Positions 1 through 58,963 of a DNA stretch of 64,000 nt are shown here, piece after piece. Numbering within the stretch: the stretch's first letter is position 1; every line of letters starts with the position of its first letter. Origin of the DNA: a virus; the IMG/VR virus record IMGVR_UViG_3300020183_000046, positions 1 to 64,000 of that record. One strand, written 5' to 3'. The position numbers were made by a program, and so were the translations under genes. The notes beneath the pieces were generated by a model that was given only the letters and a program-made list of their open reading frames with translations, ran no database searches and was not told where the DNA came from.

Positions 1-961
1 TGAGTACAATAATATCTTCTATTTCTTTGTGCCAGATTGGGAAGTGGACTGTCGCTGATCCACCTCTGATGCCATTTTGAGTGCAGCATCGGACAGTTGC
101 CTCAAACTTTTTGAGAAATGGGACAACACCTGTGTGTTGCACTTCTCCACCTCTGATTTTAGAGTTGATGCCCCTGATGCGACCTGCGTTGATACCGATG
201 CCCGCCCTTTGTGCAACATATCTGCCAATAGCCATATCGCTACTAAAGATACTATCGAGGGTGTCATCAACATCAACAAGAACACAGCTAGCGAATTGTC
301 TAAGTGGCGTTCGCACTCCTGCCATGATGGGGGTTGGAATGTTGATTTTGTGCTTGCTGATTGCGCTGTAGTATCGACGGACATAATCGATCCTGGTTTC
401 CTTAGGATAATTTTGGAACAGGGTAAGAGCGATCATCATGTACATAAACTGAGGAGTTTCGTAGTGGACTCCCGAGCTTCTATCCTGGACAAGATATTTA
501 TCCACTACTTGTCGCAATCCAGCATATGTAAACAGAAAGTCACGATCGTGATCGATGAATCTATTCAGAACATCCCATTCTTCAGCAGAATATTTTGCAA
601 GAATAGTCTTGTCATATACTCCTCTTTCAACACAAAGTTGTACCTGATCTACAAGACCAGGAAATTCTTCAGGGTGTCCAAAGACAGACTTCCTCAAACC
701 AAAAAGAAGTAGCCTTGAAGCTACGTATTGGTAGTTTGGGTTGTCTAGAGTAATCAAATCCGAAGCAGATCGAATCAAGATCTCTTGGATTTGACTTGTC
801 TTGATGCCATCAAAAAATTGCAGACCGCTATTGATTTCTACTTGAGATGGGGAGACTCCTGCAAGACCTTCACATGCCAGGTCCACCATCTTATGAACCT
901 TGTCAAGATTAATGGGCTCAGTTCTACCATCTCTCTTAACAACTTTGATTCCGTTACTCAT
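1..961 (-). CDS. nrdA: Ribonucleotide reductase class Ia alpha subunit (5' part; runs off window)
   Basis: Not in ORF track. Manual translation from ATG 961 gives MSNGIKVVKRDGRTEPINLDKVHKMVDLACEGLAGVSPSQVE, an ATP-cone N-terminus; ATGA overlap with primase stop. Confidence 0.93.
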   Translation of the reverse strand, partial: MSNGIKVVKRDGRTEPINLDKVHKMVDLACEGLAGVSPSQVEINSGLQFFDGIKTSQIQEILIRSASDLITLDNPNYQYVASRLLLFGLRKSVFGHPEEFPGLVDQVQLCVERGVYDKTILAKYSAEEWDVLNRFIDHDRDFLFTYAGLRQVVDKYLVQDRSSGVHYETPQFMYMMIALTLFQNYPKETRIDYVRRYYSAISKHKINIPTPIMAGVRTPLRQFASCVLVDVDDTLDSIFSSDMAIGRYVAQRAGIGINAGRIRGINSKIRGGEVQHTGVVPFLKKFEATVRCCTQNGIRGGSATVHFPIWHKEIEDIIVL

Positions 962-1953
962 ACTTTCCAATCTGTAAGTTTTAACTTTGCTTCTAGCCCT
1001 TGATAGATGTTAGATTCTATCACATCTTTGGCATTAATGCCAGCTTTAACCATGTCATTAATATCCTTTTCGTGAATACCCTTTGGCCAAATAACCACTG
1101 GATATCCAGAATCTATTGCTTTCTCAATTCGATCTGTAATTTGTTTGTTTCTCGGTTCATTATCAAAGATGTATACAAGATTATAGTTGAATCCACTGAG
1201 ATCTACATCAGCACCACACATGGCGATGCTGTTTTCTAAGAATAGAGAATCGAATGGTCCTTCAACAACGTATACGGTTTCATCATTCTTTACTCGATCA
1301 AGACCAAAAACCTTTGGGGCATCTTCATCTAGCATGATGGTGATATAACGCATTCTTGCGTCTGGTTCTAGAGATCTTCCCTGGTATCCGAATAGATTTC
1401 CTTCCTTGTCTTTGAGTGGAATGATGATGCGTTCATCGTCTTTGTTGGTATCCGAGAATGTTTCCTTTTGTTTATTCGTCCACTCTTTGAATTTTGGACA
1501 GAAATAAAACTCCTTTAATTTTTCTTCTGGAATACCTCTACCAAGCAAATATGCCCGAGCTGGGTGAAAGTTATTTAGCTCAGATATTGGTGTAAGGTCT
1601 ATTACTTTTTTTGATTTGAAGACAGGCGTATCAAAGGTCGGAAGGGTTGGTTTGGGAATAGGAGTTCCCTTACCAGTATGACCTTCACTATAGTGTTCCA
1701 TCAGATACTCATCATAAAGATGAGGCACCTGCTCCTTTATGAAGTTAGAAAAGGATCTACCTACGCCACAGTTATGGCACTTGTAAAAATAATCAGCCCT
1801 CTTCTTAACAAGATAACCCCTAGCTTTGTTTCGGTGCTTTTGAGAGTCACCGCAGTAGGGGCATCGGAAGTTATATACTCCAGGTTTTTTCTTGGAGAAC
1901 TTATCTAAAAAGGAGGACGAAAGACTTATGTACTTTTCGTCAATAAAACTCAT
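958..1953 (-). CDS. g61: DNA primase (T4 gp61-like)
   Basis: Zn finger NFRCPYCGDS..CHNCG; TOPRIM VVEGPFDS and DNEPRN. Confidence 0.96.
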   Translation of the reverse strand: MSFIDEKYISLSSSFLDKFSKKKPGVYNFRCPYCGDSQKHRNKARGYLVKKRADYFYKCHNCGVGRSFSNFIKEQVPHLYDEYLMEHYSEGHTGKGTPIPKPTLPTFDTPVFKSKKVIDLTPISELNNFHPARAYLLGRGIPEEKLKEFYFCPKFKEWTNKQKETFSDTNKDDERIIIPLKDKEGNLFGYQGRSLEPDARMRYITIMLDEDAPKVFGLDRVKNDETVYVVEGPFDSLFLENSIAMCGADVDLSGFNYNLVYIFDNEPRNKQITDRIEKAIDSGYPVVIWPKGIHEKDINDMVKAGINAKDVIESNIYQGLEAKLKLTDWKV

Positions 1954-2377: not shown

Positions 2378-3127
2378 TCAAAAGTATATTCTATAAATCC
2401 CATTACAATTTACACCATGTCCTTGTAGGGTAATTCTTTTATCATTTGCTGACAAATTTTTACCAGGAGCAATTTGATGTAGTACATGCCCAGTATGATA
2501 AAAAAGTTTTCCAACTTCATACTCTATGATTTTTGGGGTTGGAACTTGATTTTCTTTATCTCTAGGATCTTGAAAATTGAAAGTAGATATTTGATCAGCA
2601 GTAAGATCTATACTATCCCATAGATATAAAGATCCTCCTGTTTTTGGCAACTCCAAAGAAAGCGTAAAAGAAAATAAATCATTATAATCAATTGGACCAA
2701 ATTTATTCCAAACATTATAATGCTCCTGATATTGGATATCAACATGCAAAGAAGCTAATGGTTTTTGCATCGCTTTCAGTGCAGAAGGAAGCATCATTTC
2801 TCCTAACTTTGAACCAAAAATATGAAACCCAGGATATGCAACTTCCGAAAGTAACTCACAAGGTCCAAAGTGATCGGATAATTTTTTCAAGACAATATCA
2901 TACAACCAAGAAAAATTCTTGAGTAGTATTGGATTTAAAAGTTTCCTATGCTTGTGGTACTGCTCTTGACTTCTACACGCATCAATATAAGTTACAGCAC
3001 CTAACGTATAAAAAGGAACAGGATCAGGAGATCTCCTGATCCAAACCTTGTTTAATTTGTGAACTACCTCGACAGATTGCTTAGCTTCAGATTCACTCAA
3101 TACATCAATATATCCAAAGGGCATCAC
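2378..3127 (-). CDS. 2OG-Fe(II) oxygenase-like protein
   Basis: HVD...FTLSLELP..GG.L..W...LHQI...RITLQ (HxD..H..R); AT-rich. Confidence 0.7.
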   Translation of the reverse strand: MMPFGYIDVLSESEAKQSVEVVHKLNKVWIRRSPDPVPFYTLGAVTYIDACRSQEQYHKHRKLLNPILLKNFSWLYDIVLKKLSDHFGPCELLSEVAYPGFHIFGSKLGEMMLPSALKAMQKPLASLHVDIQYQEHYNVWNKFGPIDYNDLFSFTLSLELPKTGGSLYLWDSIDLTADQISTFNFQDPRDKENQVPTPKIIEYEVGKLFYHTGHVLHQIAPGKNLSANDKRITLQGHGVNCNGIYRIYF

Positions 3128-3852
3128 ATTTGCATGAAGTTGATAACAAAGTCTGCGCTTGATGGAAGAAGATTAATAAACTTTTCCATATTTTCTTCGC
3201 TGAGTTCTTCAAATCTAGCGATGAATTGTCCTGCCATCTCAGCAGTAACTTCCAGTTCGCTCTCGTCGTTAAAGAAATAGTATACTGGATTTTGATTCTC
3301 TTCTTTGAGTTGACTTAAAAACGATTCAAGATAAGTCAAACCATCAAAGTCATATGAATTATTTTGTGCTTGCCTCTGCAGTTGCTGTGCGAGACTTTGC
3401 TGACGTGCTTTTGCTTTCTTCTGATAGTCAGTAGACTTAGCACGAGAAATTAATTGAATCTCTTGCTTACGATTTGCTGCACGCTTTTCACGCTCTTGCT
3501 TCTTCAGAACCTTACGTTTCTGAGCGATGAATTTATAAGCTTGTTTGGTTGTTTCTCCACCACTCGATGAAGAACTAGATCCTTCAGCTTCAAGAATTGT
3601 TTCTTCTGACATTTTTCTTTTGCGTTTAGCGAGACGTTTAATAAGTTTGCGAGCAGCTTGACTCCTACCATCTATATAGGTAGGATCATTTCTACGACGT
3701 TCCCACTGTTTACCAGCGGCTTCCATTTTCTTACGTTTTTTAGTTGCCCTTTTGGAAAATTTCATGATTGGATCGACGCCAGCGATGGCACCTTGCCCAG
3801 TCGTAGGTGTATTAATAGGACCAACGTTTGTAATTCCTGCAGATCCCATCAT
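3124..3852 (-). CDS. Basic putative internal head protein with gp23-like N-terminal peptide
   Basis: N-terminus TNVGPINTPTT..G...G.DPI matches gp23 residues 55-76; K/R-rich segments; ILE-A putative gp21 site. Confidence 0.65.
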   Translation of the reverse strand: MMGSAGITNVGPINTPTTGQGAIAGVDPIMKFSKRATKKRKKMEAAGKQWERRRNDPTYIDGRSQAARKLIKRLAKRKRKMSEETILEAEGSSSSSSGGETTKQAYKFIAQKRKVLKKQEREKRAANRKQEIQLISRAKSTDYQKKAKARQQSLAQQLQRQAQNNSYDFDGLTYLESFLSQLKEENQNPVYYFFNDESELEVTAEMAGQFIARFEELSEENMEKFINLLPSSADFVINFMQM

Positions 3853-4220
3853 AACTTTTTCAACTCCTCTATTATTTCATCGTTGATTTTGATTTCCCTT
3901 AGGCTTGTAGTATCTGGTTCTGGATATCTACTCAGGAAAATCATGAGCGATTTCAAAATTGACCAGAACTCCTTTTCCATTTTGAAAAATAGGAGAGGAG
4001 TTGCAGCTTCACCAAAAACATTATACAGTATGATGATATGATTTAAAAGAAGATTTAACTTAATCTCCTCACCCTTTGAATACTTTTTTAAGAGGCGCTT
4101 TATGTATTTAAAGCGCCTCAAGTCTTCAAAGAAATCCTCTTTGGTTGCTGCCTGAGGATTGTCATAATTTCTAATGGCGAAGAGAAGATAATTATCTTCA
4201 TTCAATTCATCAAATCTCAT
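3849..4220 (-). CDS. Conserved T4-like cyanophage hypothetical protein
   Basis: MRFDELNEDNYLLFAI..YDNP..F.EDL.RFKYIKRLL motif; coupled to neighbours. Confidence 0.75.
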   Translation of the reverse strand: MRFDELNEDNYLLFAIRNYDNPQAATKEDFFEDLRRFKYIKRLLKKYSKGEEIKLNLLLNHIIILYNVFGEAATPLLFFKMEKEFWSILKSLMIFLSRYPEPDTTSLREIKINDEIIEELKKL

Positions 4221-4229
4221 TACAAGTTA

Positions 4230-4847
4230 TCAGGTTCCAAAGGTCAGAGTTGCAGCGCCATTAGAAATCACTTCTTCTGTACCGCCAGTAGAAGTGACTT
4301 TAACGCGATACTTGTAACCATTAAGGGTAGCACCTGCAAGACCGCTATATGCGAGAGTTGCTGTTGTGAAACCAGCATAGGTGATACCGCTATCAAGAGA
4401 GGCAGTGATATCGGTCCAACGACTGCCAGTTGCGGTTTGACGCTGCCACTGATAAACAAGAGTTCCAGGAGTTCCAGTTGTCGTTGTAGTAAGGGTGAAT
4501 GAACCAGCACCAGAGGAAGAAGTGGAACTTGCAGGTTGAACAGTAATAGTTACTGACGATGCTACGTCTGCTGCGTATGCGTCATCAGCGAGAGTCTCAT
4601 CAGCGTTAGCTTCAGGACCAGCAACTACAACCATCAGTTCTGCTTTGTGACGGGTGTTACCGTGCATGTCGGTATAGGTATCATACGCCCACCAACCTGG
4701 AGAAGTCAAACCGCGAGACTTGTTCTCCTCAAGCTGAGCTTCAGTGTCATCGATGAAAACAATTATTTTTGTGTTTGAGTCTGAAACAACACCACGACCA
4801 GCCTTAGTCTGGTTCTCGGTGCTGTCCGTTCTTCCGTATAAGGACAT
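4230..4847 (-). CDS. Virion structural protein with C-terminal Ig-like domain
   Basis: ITVQP...YQWQR...YKYRV...ATLT Ig motif; late promoter upstream. Confidence 0.7.
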   Translation of the reverse strand: MSLYGRTDSTENQTKAGRGVVSDSNTKIIVFIDDTEAQLEENKSRGLTSPGWWAYDTYTDMHGNTRHKAELMVVVAGPEANADETLADDAYAADVASSVTITVQPASSTSSSGAGSFTLTTTTTGTPGTLVYQWQRQTATGSRWTDITASLDSGITYAGFTTATLAYSGLAGATLNGYKYRVKVTSTGGTEEVISNGAATLTFGT

Positions 4848-4879: not shown

Positions 4880-4912
4880 TATTTATAAAAAGGGAGACCT
4901 TATTTGTCTCTC
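4880..4912 (-). promoter_or_regulatory. Intrinsic terminator immediately followed by T4 late promoter TATAAATA
   Basis: GAGAGAC-AAATAAG-GTCTCCC-TTTTT, then TATAAATA at 4880-4887. Confidence 0.7.
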
Positions 4913-5119: not shown

Positions 5120-5818
5120 TTATATAGCATCTGGATCCTCTTCTAGAAGAGCTATGCCATGTTTTGTTAACTGTTCAATACTATAATCGAGAATGACAAT
5201 AATCCTGTCATGACTTCCCTCATGCTTAACCCAGTGCTTGTCATGATCTTTGAATGCAAAAACCTCACCGACATTCCATACTCTTCTTCTTCCTCTGACT
5301 TTAATCCATGCGCCAGGATCTGTAACGACAGGAAAGTGAATACGGAGTGAATCGATGTCTCCACAGTGAGGATTAATAATTGTTCCTGGAGAAAGACGAG
5401 AAATAGTTGCAGACTTTAAAAGTTTATTATCAATATCTTCCTGTAAGTATTTAAAGGTAAGAGGACAAGTTTTAATAAAACTTTGTCTTATTAAAGGAAG
5501 AATCTCTTGACATCTTTCTGTTGTGGTATTGAATAGCTTTGTGAAAGTAACCATCTCACTGAGCTCAAAGTCCTCATCAGTTGCAGTGGTTCCCACACAG
5601 TTAATTGGGAATGGAATAACTCTCCAGTCACCATCCCACAACTTAACTCTACCAAGGTTACGATCATCAACCCATTTATCCAAGCGCCATTCATCAAGTA
5701 TTCGTTGATTGTCTTCAACGAAACTTAAAACTTCTGGGATAATGTCTTGATAATATGTTTGAAGATTACGAAAAGAGGATAGCGTTTGAATGCTATCCTC
5801 ATGCCAAATTTTTCTCAT
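5120..5818 (-). CDS. Aspartyl/asparaginyl beta-hydroxylase-family 2OG-Fe(II) oxygenase
   Basis: SRLSPGT.I.PHCGD..LRIHFP...F.D...HWVKH....RI..ILD. Confidence 0.85.
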   Translation of the reverse strand: MRKIWHEDSIQTLSSFRNLQTYYQDIIPEVLSFVEDNQRILDEWRLDKWVDDRNLGRVKLWDGDWRVIPFPINCVGTTATDEDFELSEMVTFTKLFNTTTERCQEILPLIRQSFIKTCPLTFKYLQEDIDNKLLKSATISRLSPGTIINPHCGDIDSLRIHFPVVTDPGAWIKVRGRRRVWNVGEVFAFKDHDKHWVKHEGSHDRIIVILDYSIEQLTKHGIALLEEDPDAI

Positions 5819-5821
5819 ATA

Positions 5822-5995
5822 TTATCTTTGCTCTGGGCAACCCTTAGTTCCATGTACGGGACATTCTACACCTTCTTTGGTGTGATTGCAAGCCGCTTCT
5901 ACTTTTTGTTTAGGTGCCTTTGGCATCTTTTTGTCGCCTTGCTTCTGTCCCTCTGGGTCTTCGATCTCAGGCATGATCTCAACGGGACCGACTAC
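5822..5995 (-). CDS. Cys/His-containing ORF; candidate -1 frameshift extension of 5992-7410 (or a separate 50-aa ORF from ATG 5974)
   Basis: -1 frame is open for 57 codons after A AAA AAG: VVGPVEIMPEIEDP...CNHTKEGVECPVHGTKGCPEQR. Confidence 0.6.
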   Translation of the reverse strand, partial: VVGPVEIMPEIEDPEGQKQGDKKMPKAPKQKVEAACNHTKEGVECPVHGTKGCPEQR

Positions 5996-7410
5996 TTTTT
6001 TTCAGCGATCTCCTTACGCCAGTCAGAGAAGGTATGCTCTTTCTTAACACAGTTAGGAACTTCCTTACCACCTTTTTTCTTGGTGCCTTTTGCTTCATAA
6101 CCATCCCAGCAGGTAGAAGCACCGACGTTAGCACGAGCAGCTTTCATGCCCTCTTCAACCTCTACCTCTTCCTTCTTGGTTTTGTTAGCGTGCTTCCAAG
6201 CAGTAGCGTAAGCGATGGACTTTTCCTTCTCAGTCAGGTTTCCATCTTTTGAATATGACTTTTTGATGTGCTTCACCGTGCGCTCTGCTTTATCACCAGG
6301 AGGAGCAACCTCATCAAGTTCTACTTCTTCTTTCTTAGCAGTCTTTGCTGCTTTCTTGAAGGCATCCTTTGCAGGATAATCCTCTTCACCTGGTCTAGCT
6401 GGACGCTCGCCACGCTCTCTCTTAGCGTGGATATTTGCATAGAGACCTTTCTTCTCTTCAATCTCTCCAACCTCTTCCTTCATCTTCTTACCCATCGCCT
6501 TGGAAACAGCGGCGCGACGGTTCTTCAAGTACGAATCAGATGAATCAGAATCTCCATCATTATCTACATCGTCATCTTCTTTACCAACTGGATCAAGCTT
6601 CTTTGCTTTCTTTGCTTCGAGGACTTCTTGATTCTTCTCATCGTTGATGACATGCTCATGCATTTCGCTAACGAGAATATTAAGTGAAGCAACAGAGACA
6701 TTATGCTCAAGACCATGCTCAAACATAACATCATAGTGAGTGATGTTACCTTGCTCATCGAGTGTATGCATCTCCTTGATGCAGTTACCCTCTCCCCACT
6801 CAGAGTGCTCAACTTTAGTAGCGCAAGAGTGCTTAGGTTTCTTAACCTTTGGCTTACCCTGTGTTCCAGCTGGTTCTGCCATCTTCATGCCAGGGGCATC
6901 ACCGCCTCCGACTCCAGATGCACCAAGACCTTTAACGTCTTTGTTTGCCATCTTGGCAGAGTTATCATAACGCCAGGTCTCATCCACACGATCCAGGGGA
7001 CCTTGATATTTTACTTTGCCAGAAAGTGCGGCGACTCCAGCTAATACGTACTCGTTGTTTTCCATCTTATCTTTTTTGGGGTCTGGGGGAATGACTTGTT
7101 TTACTTTAATTTTAGAGAAGGGTTGCTTCTTTTCTCCAGGAGTCAAAGACTGGAGATACTCTCGGTAAGCATCAGTGCCGATTTCAAATGCTTCTTTGAT
7201 ATCGGTAATCCATGTCCTAAAAGTTGTTTCCTCAGTAGTCAAACAGAGAACATAATTTGGTCCACGGCGGATGATCTTTCCAACCTTTCCACTTTCCGTA
7301 AGAATCCACTCACCTACTTTATAAATTTCATTACGATAAAACTTGTTACGGTTGATGTTTGTTTCCGCAACCTGTGCTTTCTTATGGAACTCGCTAAAAC
7401 TATTCATCAA
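5992..7410 (-). CDS. Modular, highly charged late protein (putative internal head polyprotein)
   Basis: N-terminal globular domain (GKIIRRGPNYV..FRTWITD), then short K/E-rich modules separated by [ILV]xE motifs; TATAAATA upstream. Confidence 0.7.
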   Translation of the reverse strand: MMNSFSEFHKKAQVAETNINRNKFYRNEIYKVGEWILTESGKVGKIIRRGPNYVLCLTTEETTFRTWITDIKEAFEIGTDAYREYLQSLTPGEKKQPFSKIKVKQVIPPDPKKDKMENNEYVLAGVAALSGKVKYQGPLDRVDETWRYDNSAKMANKDVKGLGASGVGGGDAPGMKMAEPAGTQGKPKVKKPKHSCATKVEHSEWGEGNCIKEMHTLDEQGNITHYDVMFEHGLEHNVSVASLNILVSEMHEHVINDEKNQEVLEAKKAKKLDPVGKEDDDVDNDGDSDSSDSYLKNRRAAVSKAMGKKMKEEVGEIEEKKGLYANIHAKRERGERPARPGEEDYPAKDAFKKAAKTAKKEEVELDEVAPPGDKAERTVKHIKKSYSKDGNLTEKEKSIAYATAWKHANKTKKEEVEVEEGMKAARANVGASTCWDGYEAKGTKKKGGKEVPNCVKKEHTFSDWRKEIAEKK

Positions 7411-7431: not shown

Positions 7432-7439
7432 TATTTATA
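7432..7439 (-). promoter_or_regulatory. T4-type late promoter
   Basis: Exact TATAAATA. Confidence 0.75.
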
Positions 7440-36007: not shown

Positions 36008-37369
36008 TCACATGAGGTTCTTAACGCGAACGCGACGATAGTAAGCGTTAGCAGACAGGTTGCTGCTGTGCTGAGGATCGCTATTGCTCAGTGCAGTCAG
36101 ACCCTTAGCAAATGGGTTCAGGACCATGCCGTAGCGGGTCTTGAATCCGATGCGTGGCTGGAAGGTATCCTGACCGATCGCTCTGTACATTTGCAGAGGA
36201 ACGTATGGGCAATAGAAGAGACCAGCGTCATAAGCGTTGGAACCCTTGTAGCCAACAACGTAGTATTGGTCAGAAGCAACGTTTGCCGAATAAGGATCAA
36301 TATAGACCTTGAAGCGACCGTTGAGAGTGCCGACAAAGGTGTTACCAGTGTCATCGATCTCGCCCAGACCACCAACAGCTTGATTGATGCCGCTGGAGTA
36401 GTCCAGAACGCCTGCCATAGCGAGTGCAGAAGCAACGTCAGCAGAAGTGACGATGACGTTACCCTTCCCTCTACGAGTCTCTTGTGCGATTGCGTTGGCA
36501 TCGCGCTCGATTTGGAAGAGCAGACCTTTGAACTTCTCAACCGACCAACGACCGTTGGAGTCAACGTCGAGGTCAAATACGCCAGCGTTAGCAACGTTAG
36601 CTTGAGCACCAGGCTTAGCACCGCGATATACGGTACGAACAACCTCACGGTTGATCTCAGCAAGGATCTCGGTTGACAGAATGTTTGCCAGCTCCGACTC
36701 GGCATCAAGACCGTGGATCGCCTTGAGGTCTTGTGCCAGTTCAACGGAGTAATCGGCTCTCAGCGCACGACCTTTTGCTTCAACAGCAATACGATCGATG
36801 GTGAATGCCATCTCGTTGAACTCACTACCGCTGTCACCAGCAGCTTCCAGGTTTGAAGTGGAGAGCTTGGAGGAAGCGAGGTCGTAGTTGGTTGCGGTTG
36901 TACCACCACCAGTTGCGTCGTTGATCAGACCTGGGTTCAGTTCTGTGGTTGGGGTTGTGGTTGCGCCCAGAGTACCAGAGAACTGTGCGTCTGCCTCGTC
37001 GAAGAAGGCTTCAGAACCAGTCTGGTTGGTGTAACGTGAACGCATCGCGAAGATGAGTCCAGTAGGACCTGTCATAGGTTGAACACCTGCGATGTCATAA
37101 GCAATCAGCTTAGGCATCGAACGGCGGATCAGGCTAATGAGGATAGGGTCGAAACCGAAAACATTACCTGATGCGGTTGTTGGGGTGTTGATAGGACCAA
37201 CGTTGGTTGGTGCTTCGGTAAGGATGGCACGCTCCTCACGCATAGCTTTCTCTTGGTTTTCCAGGAGGATAGCGGTAACAGCCTTACGATAGTTATCCTT
37301 GATTTCAGGAAGACCATCATGGTTAAGGACTGGTGACCACTTCTCTTGGAGGTTCTCAGATTGATACAT
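36008..37369 (-). CDS. g23: Major capsid protein (gp23)
   Basis: VQPMTGPTGLIFAMR; YSVELAQDLKAIHGLDAE.EL; FQPRIGFKTRYG. Confidence 0.98.
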   Translation of the reverse strand: MYQSENLQEKWSPVLNHDGLPEIKDNYRKAVTAILLENQEKAMREERAILTEAPTNVGPINTPTTASGNVFGFDPILISLIRRSMPKLIAYDIAGVQPMTGPTGLIFAMRSRYTNQTGSEAFFDEADAQFSGTLGATTTPTTELNPGLINDATGGGTTATNYDLASSKLSTSNLEAAGDSGSEFNEMAFTIDRIAVEAKGRALRADYSVELAQDLKAIHGLDAESELANILSTEILAEINREVVRTVYRGAKPGAQANVANAGVFDLDVDSNGRWSVEKFKGLLFQIERDANAIAQETRRGKGNVIVTSADVASALAMAGVLDYSSGINQAVGGLGEIDDTGNTFVGTLNGRFKVYIDPYSANVASDQYYVVGYKGSNAYDAGLFYCPYVPLQMYRAIGQDTFQPRIGFKTRYGMVLNPFAKGLTALSNSDPQHSSNLSANAYYRRVRVKNLM

Positions 37370-38461: not shown

Positions 38462-38515
38462 AATTGCTCCTACGGGTAATAAGACTGCGGGGTAATTTCT
38501 ATATTTATTTATAAA

Positions 38516-39163
38516 TCACAAATTTCTGAGGAAAAGTTCAAATGCGCGTAACTTTCTCTCTTGAAGCTCTTGACTACTGGGTGCAGTGTCAAGCATTTGC
38601 TTGATCTGTTCGATGTGTACTTCCTTAATGCGGTTACCTTCCATGACCCACTCTTTACCTTCATAGATTCCCTCAACAAATGCATCGGGGGCAGAAGGAT
38701 CTGCTACGATATCCGCAGCAGTAGCAAGCATAAAGTCATCAGCAACTACATTAGTGTTTCCCTCTTTTCTAATGGAACCAAGTCCTCTAGAAGAGACACC
38801 GAGCTGAACCCCCTCGTCAAGTAAGCTCTTTGCGATCTTACCCATAGGGGTTTCTAAAAGTTTTGCCTTACCAATAAAGTTTGTACCTTCTGGATAAAGC
38901 TCAACAATTTTATGTGACACACGATCGAGGTTAATCGTTGGACCGTCAGGATGTCCAAGTTCTCCGAGAGCACGTCCGCGCTGAACGAACTCTTCGTTGT
39001 ACTTATTGACCTCACGTTCCATGGTTGCATATTTGTACATGCGCCCATTTCTGTTATTGATCTCAGTTTGAAGGAAGATACCCTTAATAAAAGTATCTTT
39101 CTTACCGTCGTTTTCTTCGGTAAGAATTTCAATATCTTCAATCTGTTCCGTGATCAGTTTCAT
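38516..39163 (-). CDS. g21: Prohead protease (gp21)
   Basis: NRNGRMY; ALGELGHP; GVSSRGLGS; DIVADPSAPDA. Confidence 0.96.
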   Translation of the reverse strand: MKLITEQIEDIEILTEENDGKKDTFIKGIFLQTEINNRNGRMYKYATMEREVNKYNEEFVQRGRALGELGHPDGPTINLDRVSHKIVELYPEGTNFIGKAKLLETPMGKIAKSLLDEGVQLGVSSRGLGSIRKEGNTNVVADDFMLATAADIVADPSAPDAFVEGIYEGKEWVMEGNRIKEVHIEQIKQMLDTAPSSQELQERKLRAFELFLRNL

Positions 39164-39386
39164 CGGTTTCCTCTTCTGTGGTTTCGTCTTCAGTTTCTTC
39201 CTCTTCTTCGCTTTCGGGTTCTCCGTCTACGGGAACATGAGGAAACATTTTTGCTGCAATATCTTGTTTAGAAGCATCCACTGCCATAGCAGCTTTTACC
39301 TGCAGCATGTCTTTGAGTTTTGCAAGCGCATCCGCTTGATCATTATCCCAAAGCAAATCAACGATTTCTCGCTCTTGTGTATCCAT
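39138..39386 (-). CDS. Small acidic prohead core protein (gp67-like)
   Basis: Position between g20 and g21; acidic tail. Confidence 0.6.
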   Translation of the reverse strand: MDTQEREIVDLLWDNDQADALAKLKDMLQVKAAMAVDASKQDIAAKMFPHVPVDGEPESEEEEETEDETTEEETDETDHGTD

Positions 39387-39406: not shown

Positions 39407-41035
39407 TTATTTATTACTGTTGCTCTTTTGAGATGCGGGTTTGGGCGGATTTTTAGCTTGCTGGATCTGAACCTTCTTCATATCCATGTCCAAGTCTGCG
39501 CTTTGCTGCTCCCTATCCATGGAATCTTTCTCTTGAGATACCGTGTCGAGCGGATCAATTACTTTGCCAGACTTGATATCATTTGCCATTTCAACATCCA
39601 ACTCTTCCATTTGTTTCTCAGTCTGACCAAGAATTTGTTTGCGAATGTAATCCGTAGAGAAATACTTACCGACAAATGGATCCATCTGCGCGAGAATCTG
39701 AAGTTTCTCGTTCATCATCTCAAGGTTCTTTAATTCCGTGAAATGATTGTCATACAGATAGTCATACTGAATGTGCTCCTTCATCTGCTCCCAATCTTCA
39801 GGAGTAATAACTCCTTTGAGAATCAATTGAGTTTTCAGAGTATCTTGGAACAGTTCACTGAACTTTTTACGAAGCTTACCAACAAACTTTGTGAACTTTA
39901 GTTCATCTCTGGTGATCTCAGAAGATCTACCAAGGTTAAATGAGGTAGCGGAATCGAGTCTACCAGAAGGGACATTTAACGCTTTGTAAAGTTTTGTTTG
40001 GAAATATTGCACATCTGTAAGCTCTCCGAGGTTCTGCCCTCCTGGGAGAGTTGTGATCTCCGTGCCACGACCACCTTCCCTACGTGGAAGCCAAAAGTCT
40101 TCCAGCATAGACATATATTTGCGATCGTCACGGATCTCCCCAGTATTGGCGTCGTAAACTAACTTGTTACGATAACGACCCATTACCTCTCTGAGGTATT
40201 GTTCTGCTTTTACCTTGGGAAGATTACCAACGTCGATGTAGAAAATTCTACGTTCTGGTGCGCGAGAGATTCTGTAAATAACAAGACTGTCCTCAATCAT
40301 TCTCAGTTGATTGAGAACTTTAATTGCCTTGTGTAAATATGAAAGAACAATATTTCTATTCGTATCTAAGATGCCAGATGTCACATAGGTGATAGCATCT
40401 TTTGCAATTTTAATACCACTATTTGCAGCAGTATTGTTTAATCCTTTTGAGTTGTAAATGAAATATTCCTCGGTCCTACCGAAATCATAATTCATAAACT
40501 CGTCAACGTTCTTCGGATTCTTATTAATCTGACGAACTTTTTTAATCTTGTTTGGATCGATATAACGCAGCTCAAGAATGCCATCTTGAGGTTTGTTTAA
40601 GTCGATTACTTTATGATAATATAAACGCCCATCGATGTACCAACGACGGAACATCTCATGGGCTTTGTTATCAAATCCAAAAAGATTTTTGATATAATCA
40701 AACTCTTTGCGAATCATTCCCTTGACGCTATCGCTAACTTCAAGGTTGTCAAGATTAATTTCTACTGGGGAATCATTCTGATCAGCAACGATTGCTTCAT
40801 GAACAATATCCTCAATAGCGGAATCAACTTCTGGATGCATCGCCATTTCGCGATACTTTACCACCATGTCAAACTCGGTCTTAAAGTTACCATCTAAGTC
40901 AATATACTGACCGTAGTAACCTCCAGCAATAAAGCTAGTAGCGCCGTCTTCGTTTGTAGGGGGAACAGGGGAAGGTGCGTTTACCTTTTTCCCCTGTTCT
41001 TTTTCCCTAAACGAAAATCCAAATAACTCTGCCAT
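39407..41035 (-). CDS. g20: Portal protein (gp20)
   Basis: IYRISRAPERRIFYIDVGNLPK; EDFWLPRREGGRGTEI. Confidence 0.97.
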   Translation of the reverse strand: MAELFGFSFREKEQGKKVNAPSPVPPTNEDGATSFIAGGYYGQYIDLDGNFKTEFDMVVKYREMAMHPEVDSAIEDIVHEAIVADQNDSPVEINLDNLEVSDSVKGMIRKEFDYIKNLFGFDNKAHEMFRRWYIDGRLYYHKVIDLNKPQDGILELRYIDPNKIKKVRQINKNPKNVDEFMNYDFGRTEEYFIYNSKGLNNTAANSGIKIAKDAITYVTSGILDTNRNIVLSYLHKAIKVLNQLRMIEDSLVIYRISRAPERRIFYIDVGNLPKVKAEQYLREVMGRYRNKLVYDANTGEIRDDRKYMSMLEDFWLPRREGGRGTEITTLPGGQNLGELTDVQYFQTKLYKALNVPSGRLDSATSFNLGRSSEITRDELKFTKFVGKLRKKFSELFQDTLKTQLILKGVITPEDWEQMKEHIQYDYLYDNHFTELKNLEMMNEKLQILAQMDPFVGKYFSTDYIRKQILGQTEKQMEELDVEMANDIKSGKVIDPLDTVSQEKDSMDREQQSADLDMDMKKVQIQQAKNPPKPASQKSNSNK

Positions 41036-56505: not shown

Positions 56506-57216
56506 TTATTGTAAAAATGCATTAAATGTTAGACGGTTAGTACTCCACTCTCCTTGTTTAAAATATGGAGAATGCCAAAGTCTTCCCTCATACAACAATA
56601 CGGAATTATATTCATGAAGTTCAACATGATATCTTTCCCATTCTTTTGATTTATATTTTGATGGATCAAAATTAACAAAAGCATTAATATGATTTAGTGC
56701 TCTAGATGATCTGTAATTTTTATCAGAAGAAACAAATTCTTCACACAATTCAGTATTCCTAAAGAAAGCGGTTCCAGAATCTGTACCAACTAATTCTTCT
56801 GACTTATTCAAGCACAATACAGCAGCATAGTGAGTATCATCCGTGTGGGGTGATAGGCTACACATTCTACATTTTTCATTTACTTCATACATTTGAAAAG
56901 TAAAATCCGACATAGCTGGAATACTCATTACAGATCTACCAGCTTCAAAGTAAGTATGACAAGCAAATTTGAATGGCTCATTAAATTGTTTTGAGGTATG
57001 TCCAATTCTATGGACATATCCAGGTAAGTTTGTATATTCACCATTTAGCGTAGAAACATAATCACATGATAATGCATATGCTCTAACTGAATCTGGATTC
57101 TTGAAAAAATTTTTTATTTTGATTATACGATTTTTACTCTTACCAATATGTGTTTGCTCAACATCCCAATCTCTAGGATGATGTACTTCTAATATATCTG
57201 GATTAATTACTTTCAT
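56506..57216 (-). CDS. 2OG-Fe(II) oxygenase-like protein (DUF6445-like)
   Basis: NFFKNPD.VR; PHTD..YAAVLCLN; GTAFFR; WHSP; RLT. Confidence 0.75.
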   Translation of the reverse strand: MKVINPDILEVHHPRDWDVEQTHIGKSKNRIIKIKNFFKNPDSVRAYALSCDYVSTLNGEYTNLPGYVHRIGHTSKQFNEPFKFACHTYFEAGRSVMSIPAMSDFTFQMYEVNEKCRMCSLSPHTDDTHYAAVLCLNKSEELVGTDSGTAFFRNTELCEEFVSSDKNYRSSRALNHINAFVNFDPSKYKSKEWERYHVELHEYNSVLLYEGRLWHSPYFKQGEWSTNRLTFNAFLQ

Positions 57217-58963
57217 TTCCAAAATACTCATCAACTACTTTAGTTTTCTCTAAGACCAAAACATGAATTCCATTCCACCAGTGGGTAGGATTTTCTATTA
57301 TACCACTTAGAAGTTTTCTTTCAAAATAACAAGTTAAATTATTTTCCTTTACGAATTGTACAGTTCCTTCAACAACACCATCAAAATTAGCATCATCCAC
57401 AACCAAAATAAATTTATCATCTAAAAATGGTAAAATATGATTGAGGTTATTCATCTGCTCAATCATATCATGATTTGCATCATAGAAAACTACATTTGGT
57501 TTATATCCATCAAAGTCATCTTTAGTTAGTTCTTGAGCACTAGCTTTTATGAAAACGGAATTACCATTTTCATATTTTTCCCAGTGCTGAACAAGCATAT
57601 CATATGGATTTGATATTTCTGCCCATGAAACATGGGGCATCATGGGTTTACATTCTGGTTCAGAAAAATCGTCAACTCCAAAACATTTTGTAGCATTATT
57701 CATTCCTGCAGCAAAGAATGTACTTCCAATAAAAGTTCCAATCTCTAAGTATACTGAATCTTTATGCGAACATAAACTATTTAAAAAATGTCTAACTCTA
57801 TCAGAGGTCAATCCACGTACAATATAGTTTTCTGGGTTATAGTTTGAAGATCTTGTCAATCCATCATTAATTGCTTTTAATGTTCTCTTTGTAAATTCAT
57901 CAACTTCAGTTGGTCTTTCATCTCGTTTGAGATGAGATTCAACAACAGCTTCACAGTAATTACAATCCCAGCAATTAAACTGGCAAGTTTTAATTTTTTC
58001 TCTCCAAATATCAATTGGTTTTTTCTCCATGGATAAATCTTCCATGTAATTATTAAAGGTTGGAAAAAGTAAATCATCTTCTTTTGCCCACCTTTCAACA
58101 ATATCCATAGATTCTTTTAACTTCATGGTGTTTTCTCTACCATGCATTTTAAATACATCAATACCTAAATCTAAAAATTCATTCCAGTCCTCTCTCCATG
58201 GTGGGAGATTTGCAGATTTTAATGCATGTGAATTATCTTGAATATCCCAAAGAGCACATGAATTTGTACTAATTGGATCCATGAAATATTGAGGAATATT
58301 TTCAGTTCTAGTGTTATTAAAATGGTAGTGTTCATCCATCATGGAACATCCTCCCCAGCAACCCTCATTTGCCAAAAGAGAAAGTTCTACTGGTTTACCA
58401 ATAGATGCACAGTATTCCTTAGATTTTTTAATCTTAAGTAAGGAATCTCTATCTCTCATTAAATCCCTATCGAGATTAATATAATGAAACCCAGCATTAG
58501 CTAGTGATACAATCTCATTTGCTTTAGTTACATTTCTCAGGATTGTATTTTTAATTTTAAGTTCTGGAAATTCTTTTTGTATAATGCCAGAAGCAACCCA
58601 ACTGGTATGTGGAATAGTTGCTATTCTAACTCCATTATCATATAACTGTTTGAAGTTGTGTACAAATAGATCTAAATTTTCTTGGTCTGGTCTAACATAG
58701 ATATTATTGAATGTTGCGGATAATGGAATTCCTGCTGCATCTGCAATAGATTTTGCATTATAAAAAAGTTGCACAATATCTCCAGCAAAAACATCTCCCA
58801 TAGCATCATTAACAAATGGGGGCATTCTTGATGTAAAATAAAGATCTACAATATAATCTTTATATTTTTTTAACCAAGGAACAAATACTGTCTCTGCAAA
58901 TTTAGAATCAATCTTCGGATTTATTGGAAGACTGAAGACGAATTTTTTCTTTTGGGATGTCAT
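57203..58963 (-). CDS. Peptidase U32-family (Fe-S) domain fused to class I SAM methyltransferase
   Basis: INLDRDLMR; NEGCWGGC; DVFKMHGRE; CxxxCxxCxxC; then YLEIGTFIGST, GVDDF, FYDANH, VDD. Confidence 0.75.
   Translation of the reverse strand: MTSQKKKFVFSLPINPKIDSKFAETVFVPWLKKYKDYIVDLYFTSRMPPFVNDAMGDVFAGDIVQLFYNAKSIADAAGIPLSATFNNIYVRPDQENLDLFVHNFKQLYDNGVRIATIPHTSWVASGIIQKEFPELKIKNTILRNVTKANEIVSLANAGFHYINLDRDLMRDRDSLLKIKKSKEYCASIGKPVELSLLANEGCWGGCSMMDEHYHFNNTRTENIPQYFMDPISTNSCALWDIQDNSHALKSANLPPWREDWNEFLDLGIDVFKMHGRENTMKLKESMDIVERWAKEDDLLFPTFNNYMEDLSMEKKPIDIWREKIKTCQFNCWDCNYCEAVVESHLKRDERPTEVDEFTKRTLKAINDGLTRSSNYNPENYIVRGLTSDRVRHFLNSLCSHKDSVYLEIGTFIGSTFFAAGMNNATKCFGVDDFSEPECKPMMPHVSWAEISNPYDMLVQHWEKYENGNSVFIKASAQELTKDDFDGYKPNVVFYDANHDMIEQMNNLNHILPFLDDKFILVVDDANFDGVVEGTVQFVKENNLTCYFERKLLSGIIENPTHWWNGIHVLVLEKTKVVDEYFGNESN

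Follow-up and report, generated by a model that had tools for sequence, protein, structure and literature searches.

An open reading frame on the minus strand of the window (the whole 64,000-nucleotide stretch of viral DNA analysed here) encodes a protein that opens with a copy of the mature N-terminus of gp23, the major capsid protein of the same genome. This ORF belongs to phrog_4187, the long form of a T4-like module typified by T4 gene 61.1. The copy is real and far beyond chance, it is under strong purifying selection, and it follows the lineage-specific sequence of the cognate gp23. The best explanation at present is a minor head-associated protein which would use its copy of the gp23 N-fist to bind whatever the capsid N-fist itself binds, i.e. 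docking on the capsid lattice; we assign this reading a probability of about 0.45, slightly below even odds. The window derives from a T4-like cyanomyovirus close to the Prochlorococcus phages P-HM1, P-HM2 and MED4-213 (genus Eurybiavirus). The coordinates of the features discussed are collected in Table 1.

Table 1 Positions of the mimic gene, gp23 and associated features in the window
Feature	Position	Strand	Remarks
Whole mimic gene, 242-aa N-fist-mimic protein	3124..3852	(-)	phrog_4187; T4-like gene cluster 538 of P-HM1/P-HM2
Mimic residues 1-7, short lead M-M-G-S-A-G-I	3832..3852	(-)	
Mimic residues 8-29, copy of gp23 mature N-terminus (N-fist and first N-arm residues)	3766..3831	(-)	
Mimic residues 30-82, polybasic region	3607..3765	(-)	42% K+R; two helices predicted
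Mimic residues 86-88, I-L-E, followed by Ala89	3589..3597	(-)	[IL]xE site of prohead-protease type
Mimic residues 100-163, long K/Q/R-rich helix	3364..3555	(-)	pLDDT about 80-89
Mimic residues 166-242, small acidic alpha/beta domain	3127..3357	(-)	pI 4.1
gp23 major capsid protein gene, 453 aa	36008..37369	(-)	Pfam Gp23, E 2e-143
gp23 residues 53-76, predicted mature N-terminus, original of the copy	37142..37213	(-)	
gp23 residues 50-52, L-T-E, predicted maturation cleavage site	37214..37222	(-)	Alignment to T4 site
T4-type late promoter box TATAAATA	4880..4887	(-)	33 nt before ATG of first operon gene
First operon gene, head protein (phrog_613)	4230..4847	(-)	
Second operon gene, DUF7207 (cyanophage core cluster 198)	3849..4220	(-)	Translationally coupled to mimic
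gp21-type prohead protease (Peptidase_S77)	38516..39163	(-)	Candidate enzyme for [IL]xE sites
gp61 primase	958..1953	(-)	Conserved landmark beside mimic genes in T4 and cyanophages

The copied segment and the protein that carries it

Recomputing the alignment proposed in the original prediction gave the same result: mimic residues 8–29 (3766–3831) and gp23 residues 55–76 (37142–37207) align without gaps and share 16 of 22 residues, 11 of them in one uninterrupted run. BLASTP of the mimic against gp23 returned an E-value of 1e-9, the similarity being limited to gp23 residues 55–97. When the whole 78-kb record was searched in six frames with gp23 residues 45–95, only gp23 and the mimic ORF (E 5e-8) were retrieved. 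The gp23 segment begins two residues past L-T-E/A, which aligns exactly with the T4 maturation site F-L-T-E/A, so that the proposal of a predicted mature N-terminus following LTE-A is upheld. The copied residues align to T4 gp23 66–95, corresponding to the N-fist and the first residues of the N-arm. From these motifs and alignments, gp23 is predicted to be cleaved at E52 and the mimic at E88.

The protein had been described as K/R-rich with an ILE-A site, and both features were recovered: K and R make up 18% of the residues overall and 42% in residues 30–82, and I-L-E/A occupies positions 86–89. The charge is unevenly distributed, with a pI of 11.1 for residues 1–88 and 4.1 for residues 166–242. 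The AlphaFold model is of modest quality (mean pLDDT 66). It leaves residues 1–27, comprising the gp23 copy, disordered, and continues with two basic helices (28–55 and 65–90), a disordered Ser/Gly linker in which the E88 site is placed, a long helix (100–163), and a small acidic alpha/beta domain (171–241). A fold search with this model returned only the protein's own family in BFVD and no match in the PDB. No Pfam family matched either, the Gp23 family (PF07068) included. The full-length HMM match to phrog_4187 (E 9.8e-51, residues 2–236) is the sole phrog match of the mimic; phrog_1823 and phrog_2086 were unmatched. Only seven residues precede the copy, and they contain neither a targeting-type leader ending in [IL]xE nor a 10–19-residue propeptide ending in L/I-x-E such as T4 internal proteins carry. 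A longer in-frame leader upstream is ruled out by an in-frame stop 9 nt before the start.

Among cultured phages, the closest homologues are those of P-HM1, P-HM2 and MED4-213 only (57–61% identity), in which the gene is assigned to T4-like gene cluster 538 and its product is called hypothetical. Metagenomic homologues of the long form number more than 2000 and collapse at 50% clustering into essentially one full-length cluster and a few distant ones. Across a set of 121 homologues, no stretch is better conserved than the copied peptide (mean top-residue frequency 0.97, compared to 0.72–0.88 elsewhere), and all 121 have an [IL]xE motif whose Glu is residue 88 and whose next residue is Ala.

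At the nucleotide level the two copies have drifted apart. A recount confirmed that seven of the 11 codons in the identical run differ synonymously between mimic and gp23. Across 12 mimic/gp23 pairs from subgroups A and D (see below), 95 of 208 codons at identical residues are shared, with 82 expected from codon usage alone, the nucleotide identity is 60–71%, and the longest identical run measures 14 nt. Codon sharing near expectation, the low nucleotide identity and the short maximum run rule out recent gene conversion. Since codon choice in one copy is almost random with respect to the other, it is the protein sequence that is under selection, and the earlier statement that the match is kept at protein level, and is no recent DNA duplication, can be maintained. 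The shortness of the matched segment (22 residues) could be taken to indicate a chance similarity, or a functionless relic of recent duplication or gene conversion. Such an origin has a negligible probability and is refuted by the E-value of 1e-9, by the copy being the best-conserved part of the metagenomic homologues, by the near-saturation of synonymous sites, and by the recurrence of the copy in four subgroups and in T4.

Late operon and flanking genes

The mimic is the third gene of a late operon that starts with a head protein, and its start codon overlaps the stop of the DUF7207 gene (ATGA). On its 3' side, ORF 2378–3127 (-) overlaps the mimic stop by 4 nt. Two genes separate the mimic (3124–3852) from the primase (958–1953). 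The block head protein – DUF7207 – [slot] – DUF7201 – primase gp61 – nrdA is kept in P-HM1, S-RSM4, Syn1, P-SSM4, Syn9, S-SM1 and S-SZBM1, and T4 also has a mimic gene (61.1) beside its primase gene 61. Both a scaffold protein (T4_CASP) and a protease (Peptidase_S77) are encoded in the window.

The window holds eight TATAAATA boxes, all on the minus (coding) strand, where 3.3 would be expected on both strands together. They precede structural or late genes, for instance at 38506–38513 before the scaffold gene. One of the eight (7432–7439) belongs to a 472-residue charged protein at 5992–7410 (-), which by position and size alone appears to correspond to S-SZBM1_139 (457 aa). The latter, like the product of the neighbouring cytidylyltransferase gene, is among the proteins identified in S-SZBM1 virions (PMC9146016 Table 1). 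Between the portal gene (39407–41035) and the prohead protease, the position of the T4 core genes 67/68, lies an ORF of 82 residues (39138–39386 (-)) with a strongly acidic Glu/Asp/Thr tail and no Pfam match; it is possibly an analogue of gp67.

Two oxygenase-type genes flank the head-protein/mimic operon. On one side, 5120–5818 (-) encodes an Asp/Asn beta-hydroxylase (PF05118, E 2e-20; TlmH-like), and on the other, ORF 2378–3127 gave a sub-threshold 2OG-oxygenase/halogenase-like match (WelO5, E 0.09). Both corresponding clusters (536 and 539) are confined to the P-HM group (Sullivan 2010, PMC3037559). The N-fist of this group is rich in Asn, Pro and Thr.

These surroundings bear on a further reading, according to which some factor recognises the N-terminus of the capsid protein and the mimic serves as its decoy or as a co-substrate; this factor could be a host defence sensor or a phage enzyme such as those encoded by the flanking hydroxylase-type genes. 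The composition of the copied peptide, the proximity of the PF05118 hydroxylase and of the weak oxygenase-like ORF, and the hypervariability of the N-fist between lineages are in line with it. The module is nevertheless present in phages that have no such oxygenases, T4 included, and late expression fits poorly with early sensing. We know of no sensor of the gp23 N-fist segment and regard a decoy as very improbable.

Mimics in other phages and co-variation with gp23

The slot beside primase gp61 holds an N-terminus mimic across the cyanomyoviruses examined, and gp23 queries retrieve the mimic in other genomes with E-values of 1e-6 to 5e-5. Same-genome pairs of slot gene and gp23 were taken from phage records and long IMG/VR contigs only; IMG/VR contigs were often too short to hold both genes (10 of 12 in one set), and in another set four of five had no full-length gp23. 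Four subgroups can be distinguished. In subgroup A (the window, P-HM1, P-HM2 and contig L035), both genes carry an arm of the T-N-V-G-P-I-N-T-P-T-T type. Subgroup B (P0135-like) starts with a leader of 16 residues that ends in E-E, continues with a shortened arm which begins like that of the cognate gp23 (x-P-T-M/N-S), and then has A-I-A-G-L-P-P. Subgroup C, with S-PM2, Syn1, S-RSM4, S-CAM1, S-CAM4 and others, has an 11-residue leader ending in L/M-N-E, parallel to the M-L-N-E site of gp23, with a short arm next. It also belongs to phrog_4187, which spans the cyanophage clusters T4-GC 538 and 844; Syn1_168 matches this phrog at E 2e-125, and the sequence P0139 links subgroups A and C in tblastn. 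Subgroup D (P-SSM4, Syn9, S-SM1, S-MbCM6, P-TIM40 and S-PRM1) corresponds to phrog_696 and carries long copies, of the Q-T-T-G-Y-T-G-G-D type in Syn9 and P-SSM4 and of the A-P-T-M-S-A-G type in P-TIM40, each matching its own gp23. Like the protein in the window, subgroup D mimics have no leader, and in subgroups B and C the copy is directly preceded by sites of the [ILM]xE type. The copies begin at the position of the mature gp23 end or have a cleavage-type site in front of it, and a polybasic tract directly follows the copy in subgroups A, B, C and D as well as in T4. Sizes vary, from an 83-codon form in S-PRM1 to 123 residues in S-SZBM1_134.

Co-variation of the mimic with the cognate gp23 in other phages, to be expected if the original prediction holds, was found. 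Local alignment scores were calculated for each mimic against every gp23 arm in 27 unique same-genome pairs, which are not phylogenetically independent. The cognate scores summed to 1459, compared to 949 +/- 68 for shuffled pairings (z 7.5; reached in 0 of 20,000 shuffles), and omission of the shared G-x-x-A-G-F-D-P tail left the result intact (z 7.6). The signal stems from subgroups A and D; subgroup B contributes moderately, and the short copies of subgroup C show no cognate specificity. The window group, the P-SSM4/Syn9/S-MbCM6 group, P-TIM40 and contig L238 each have a distinct arm type on which mimic and gp23 agree, and a conservative count gives four or five independent matched types. 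In P-HM2, a parallel Pro-to-Gln substitution is found in both mimic and gp23, with flanking codons that differ between the two genes.

S-SM1 (1006–1554 of sequence L150) and contigs L211/L263 depart from this pattern. Their mimic arm reads A-G-T-G-G-F-S-G-S, compared to Q-T-T-G-Y-T-G-G in their own gp23, and the S-SM1-type mimic arm resembles the gp23 of P-TIM40/P-SSM2-type phages. The mismatch in S-SM1 and L211 suggests a horizontal exchange of the module or of gp23.

T4-GC 426/phrog_696, the family of PSSM4_163, Syn9 gp190 and SSM1_197, resembles the mimic in occupying the slot between DUF7207 and DUF7201 and in having an N-terminal module that copies its own gp23. It differs in its unrelated C-terminal body and in that no more than about 70% of its members have an [IL]xE motif after the basic tract. 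When the profiles of phrog_4187 and subgroup D were compared by hhalign, the N-terminal module alone aligned (29 columns, E 1.5e-5); homology of the C-terminal bodies of phrog_4187 and phrog_696 was rejected, as the E-value without the module was 0.12. Judged by these alignments, the N-fist copy and the polybasic tract form one module, fused to unrelated C-terminal bodies. Two unusual arrangements were also seen: a single ORF of the marine single-virus genome MH319754.1 (~57160–57255) has two N-fist-like peptides, and in P-SSM2 cluster 200 (PSSM2_205, 744–1391 of sequence L151, phrog_3286) the motif and a lysine run are located near the C-terminus.

T4 gene 61.1, virion data and a possible role in the head

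The product of T4 gene 61.1 comprises 54 aa, belongs to phrog_1823 (long forms: phrog_2086) and is annotated ‘hypothetical’. It consists of a 10-residue leader ending in I-K-E, a copy of gp23 66–97 and a lysine run, and its Smith–Waterman score against T4 gp23 is 82. Like the mimic in the window, it copies the mature N-terminus of its cognate gp23, continues with a basic run and is encoded beside the primase gene. It differs in being the module alone with a leader; the mimic in the window lacks the leader and has about 210 additional residues, namely the basic region, the E88 site, the long helix and the acidic domain. In the literature searched, no paper on the function of T4 61.1 or of Syn9 gp190 was found.

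The 61.1 leader is close to the capsid targeting sequence of IPIII, which draws attention to the T4 internal proteins. The T4 protease gp21 cuts after L/I-x-E, and internal proteins enter the core by means of 10–19-residue N-terminal signals (PMC9026906). T4 IPI, IPII, IPIII and Alt are, like the mimic, basic and late, contain [IL]xE processing motifs and start with a short N-terminal signal to which variable cargo is attached (PMC9026906). They share no sequence relation with the mimic in the window, however, their signal is unlike gp23, and the window protein has no leader. The mimic could be an internal core protein of this type, its N-terminal peptide providing, much like the equivalent region of gp23, a targeting and processing context for the scaffold core or the prohead protease instead of a dock; the basic part would then stay with the DNA and may be injected. 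Such a role would account for the T4 61.1 leader ending in I-K-E near the IPIII sequence (PMC9026906), for the [ILM]xE-type sites before the copy in subgroups B and C, and for the basic body, varying C-terminal ‘cargo’ and conserved E88 site. It also fits the location of the gp23 N-terminal region inside the unexpanded T4 prohead, probably on the core (PMC9546572). Against it stand the missing leader in the window protein and subgroup D, and the fact that a signal used for targeting alone would have no need to reproduce the mature capsid end or to track its lineage-specific sequence. Moreover, the part of T4 gp23 that binds the scaffold is believed to include the 65-residue propeptide lost on maturation, and the mimic has no such propeptide. 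An internal protein of the IP type is unlikely, albeit the main rival of docking.

What the real N-fist does in T4 constrains the location of any mimic. The N-fist is formed by the first 25 residues of gp23* and contacts four subunits (PMC9958956). Inside the unexpanded prohead, residues 66–105 of T4 gp23 show no order and probably rest on the scaffold core (PMC9546572). Expansion moves them to the outer surface, where they form the arm and the fist and contribute to the site at which Soc binds (PMC9958956, PMC9546572). The original prediction had the protein mimic the gp23 N-arm, and suggested that it could dock on the inner capsid surface or at the portal vertex, or regulate head assembly or maturation. 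A copy of the gp23 N-terminus is borne out. An inner-surface location does not follow directly because the T4 N-fist ends on the outer surface after expansion, and the portal has no direct basis: a reading of the copied peptide as the portal ‘whisker’ was rejected, as the published portal-anchoring ‘N-whisker’ belongs to the N-terminus of gp20 and not to gp23 (PMC7136217).

As to presence in virions, the evidence is divided. The cluster 426 product, encoded by the subgroup D slot gene, was found in purified S-SM1 virions with 17 peptide counts, the portal reaching 18 (PMC3037559 Suppl. Table 8). It was undetected in Syn9 virions, in which neighbouring gene products were detected (PMC3037559 Suppl. 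Table 8). The S-PM2 member of phrog_4187 (cluster 844) is not among the reported S-PM2 virion proteins, and the 30 virion proteins of S-SZBM1 include the neighbours 136, 139 and 140 but not the mimic SSZBM1_134 (PMC9146016 Table 1). From phrog_4187 proper, no member was detected in the virion proteomes examined, and these non-detections carry little weight because short, very basic proteins are poor tryptic targets. Orthologues of the phrog_613 head protein were detected in virions of S-PM2 (PMC3037559 Suppl. Table 8) and S-SZBM1 (PMC9146016 Table 1).

The lack of detection of a counterpart in three of four virion proteomes would be explained if the mimic were an assembly regulator or competitor and no stable part of the virion. 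As a free peptide it would transiently fill N-fist sites or the protease, and either time expansion and cleavage or block off-pathway polymerisation of gp23. The predicted disorder of the isolated peptide is compatible with such a role, and the co-variation fits any direct contact with gp23. The 17 counts of the sister-family member in S-SM1 virions speak against it, and the conserved polybasic tract and the protease-type site would be left unexplained. A purely regulatory function is considered decidedly unlikely.

Taken together, the late promoter, the operon with a head protein, the E88 site, the protease in the window and the S-SM1 virion detection point to a link between the mimic and the head. 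Lattice docking is favoured on two grounds: the mature gp23 end is what the copies imitate, whether they stand at the very start of the protein or after a cleavage-type site, and their sequences follow the lineage-specific arms. In this mechanism, the disordered N-terminal peptide would bind the same gp23-lattice surfaces, or the same partner, as the real N-fist. The basic region would thereby be set against DNA or the acidic scaffold, and the gp21-type protease may cut at I-L-E88/A, so that the first 88 residues, a basic head piece, would come apart from the C-terminal body with its long helix and acidic domain. Counting against docking are the non-detections in the virions of Syn9, S-PM2 and S-SZBM1, the missing cognate specificity of subgroup C and the arms of S-SM1 and L211 that are unlike their own gp23. 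The outer-surface end of the T4 N-fist is hard to reconcile with an internal, protease-cut mimic, and docking does not explain the route of prohead entry, as the leader of T4 61.1 and of subgroups B and C is missing from the window protein. A complex prediction with two copies of gp23 77–453 and mimic residues 1–45 scored 0.00 and counts neither way.

Docking could be extended to all copies in T4 61.1, phrog_4187, phrog_696 and phrog_3286, which might represent a portable docking tag. The tag would plug N-fist sites left empty by the lattice (at the portal and the five-fold vertices) or thread through the shell on expansion, and so tether a basic DNA-binding piece or variable cargo. This generalisation is tentative and, for now, rather doubtful.

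T4 head assembly is among the best-studied assembly pathways, and in the literature searched no description was found of a conserved gene that copies the maturation end of the capsid protein itself. New in the present analysis are the long phrog_4187 form with its invariant E88, the co-variation test on 27 pairs, the parallel substitution in P-HM2 and the occurrence of one module on unrelated bodies. SaPI1 CpmB imitates the C-terminus of the 80alpha scaffold and, like the mimic, is a separate protein imitating a short capsid-binding peptide of an assembly protein. CpmB is a parasite's device against its helper phage, whereas here mimic and gp23 reside in the same genome and co-evolve. The copied residues align to the N-fist/N-arm of T4 gp23*, but the mimic is a separate polypeptide without the HK97 fold. 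Should the copy dock on the lattice or on the core, an overlooked head component would come to light, and the module would be a naturally occurring, lineage-specific tag by which proteins could be placed on or into T4-like capsids. If it does act as a docking tag, it would stand for a kind of head component so far missing from the literature and for a new route by which proteins are directed to the capsid. The mimic family is abundant in the ocean, and it can be approached directly in T4 and in cultured cyanophages.

Docking would also explain why some slot genes are mislabelled in RefSeq. PSSM4_163, Syn9 gp190 and SSM1_197 are named ‘major head protein’ in NC_006884, NC_008296 and NC_015282, as is phrog_696. 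These genes share only about 25 N-terminal residues with gp23, and the label is misleading, likely an annotation error spread by the short similarity.
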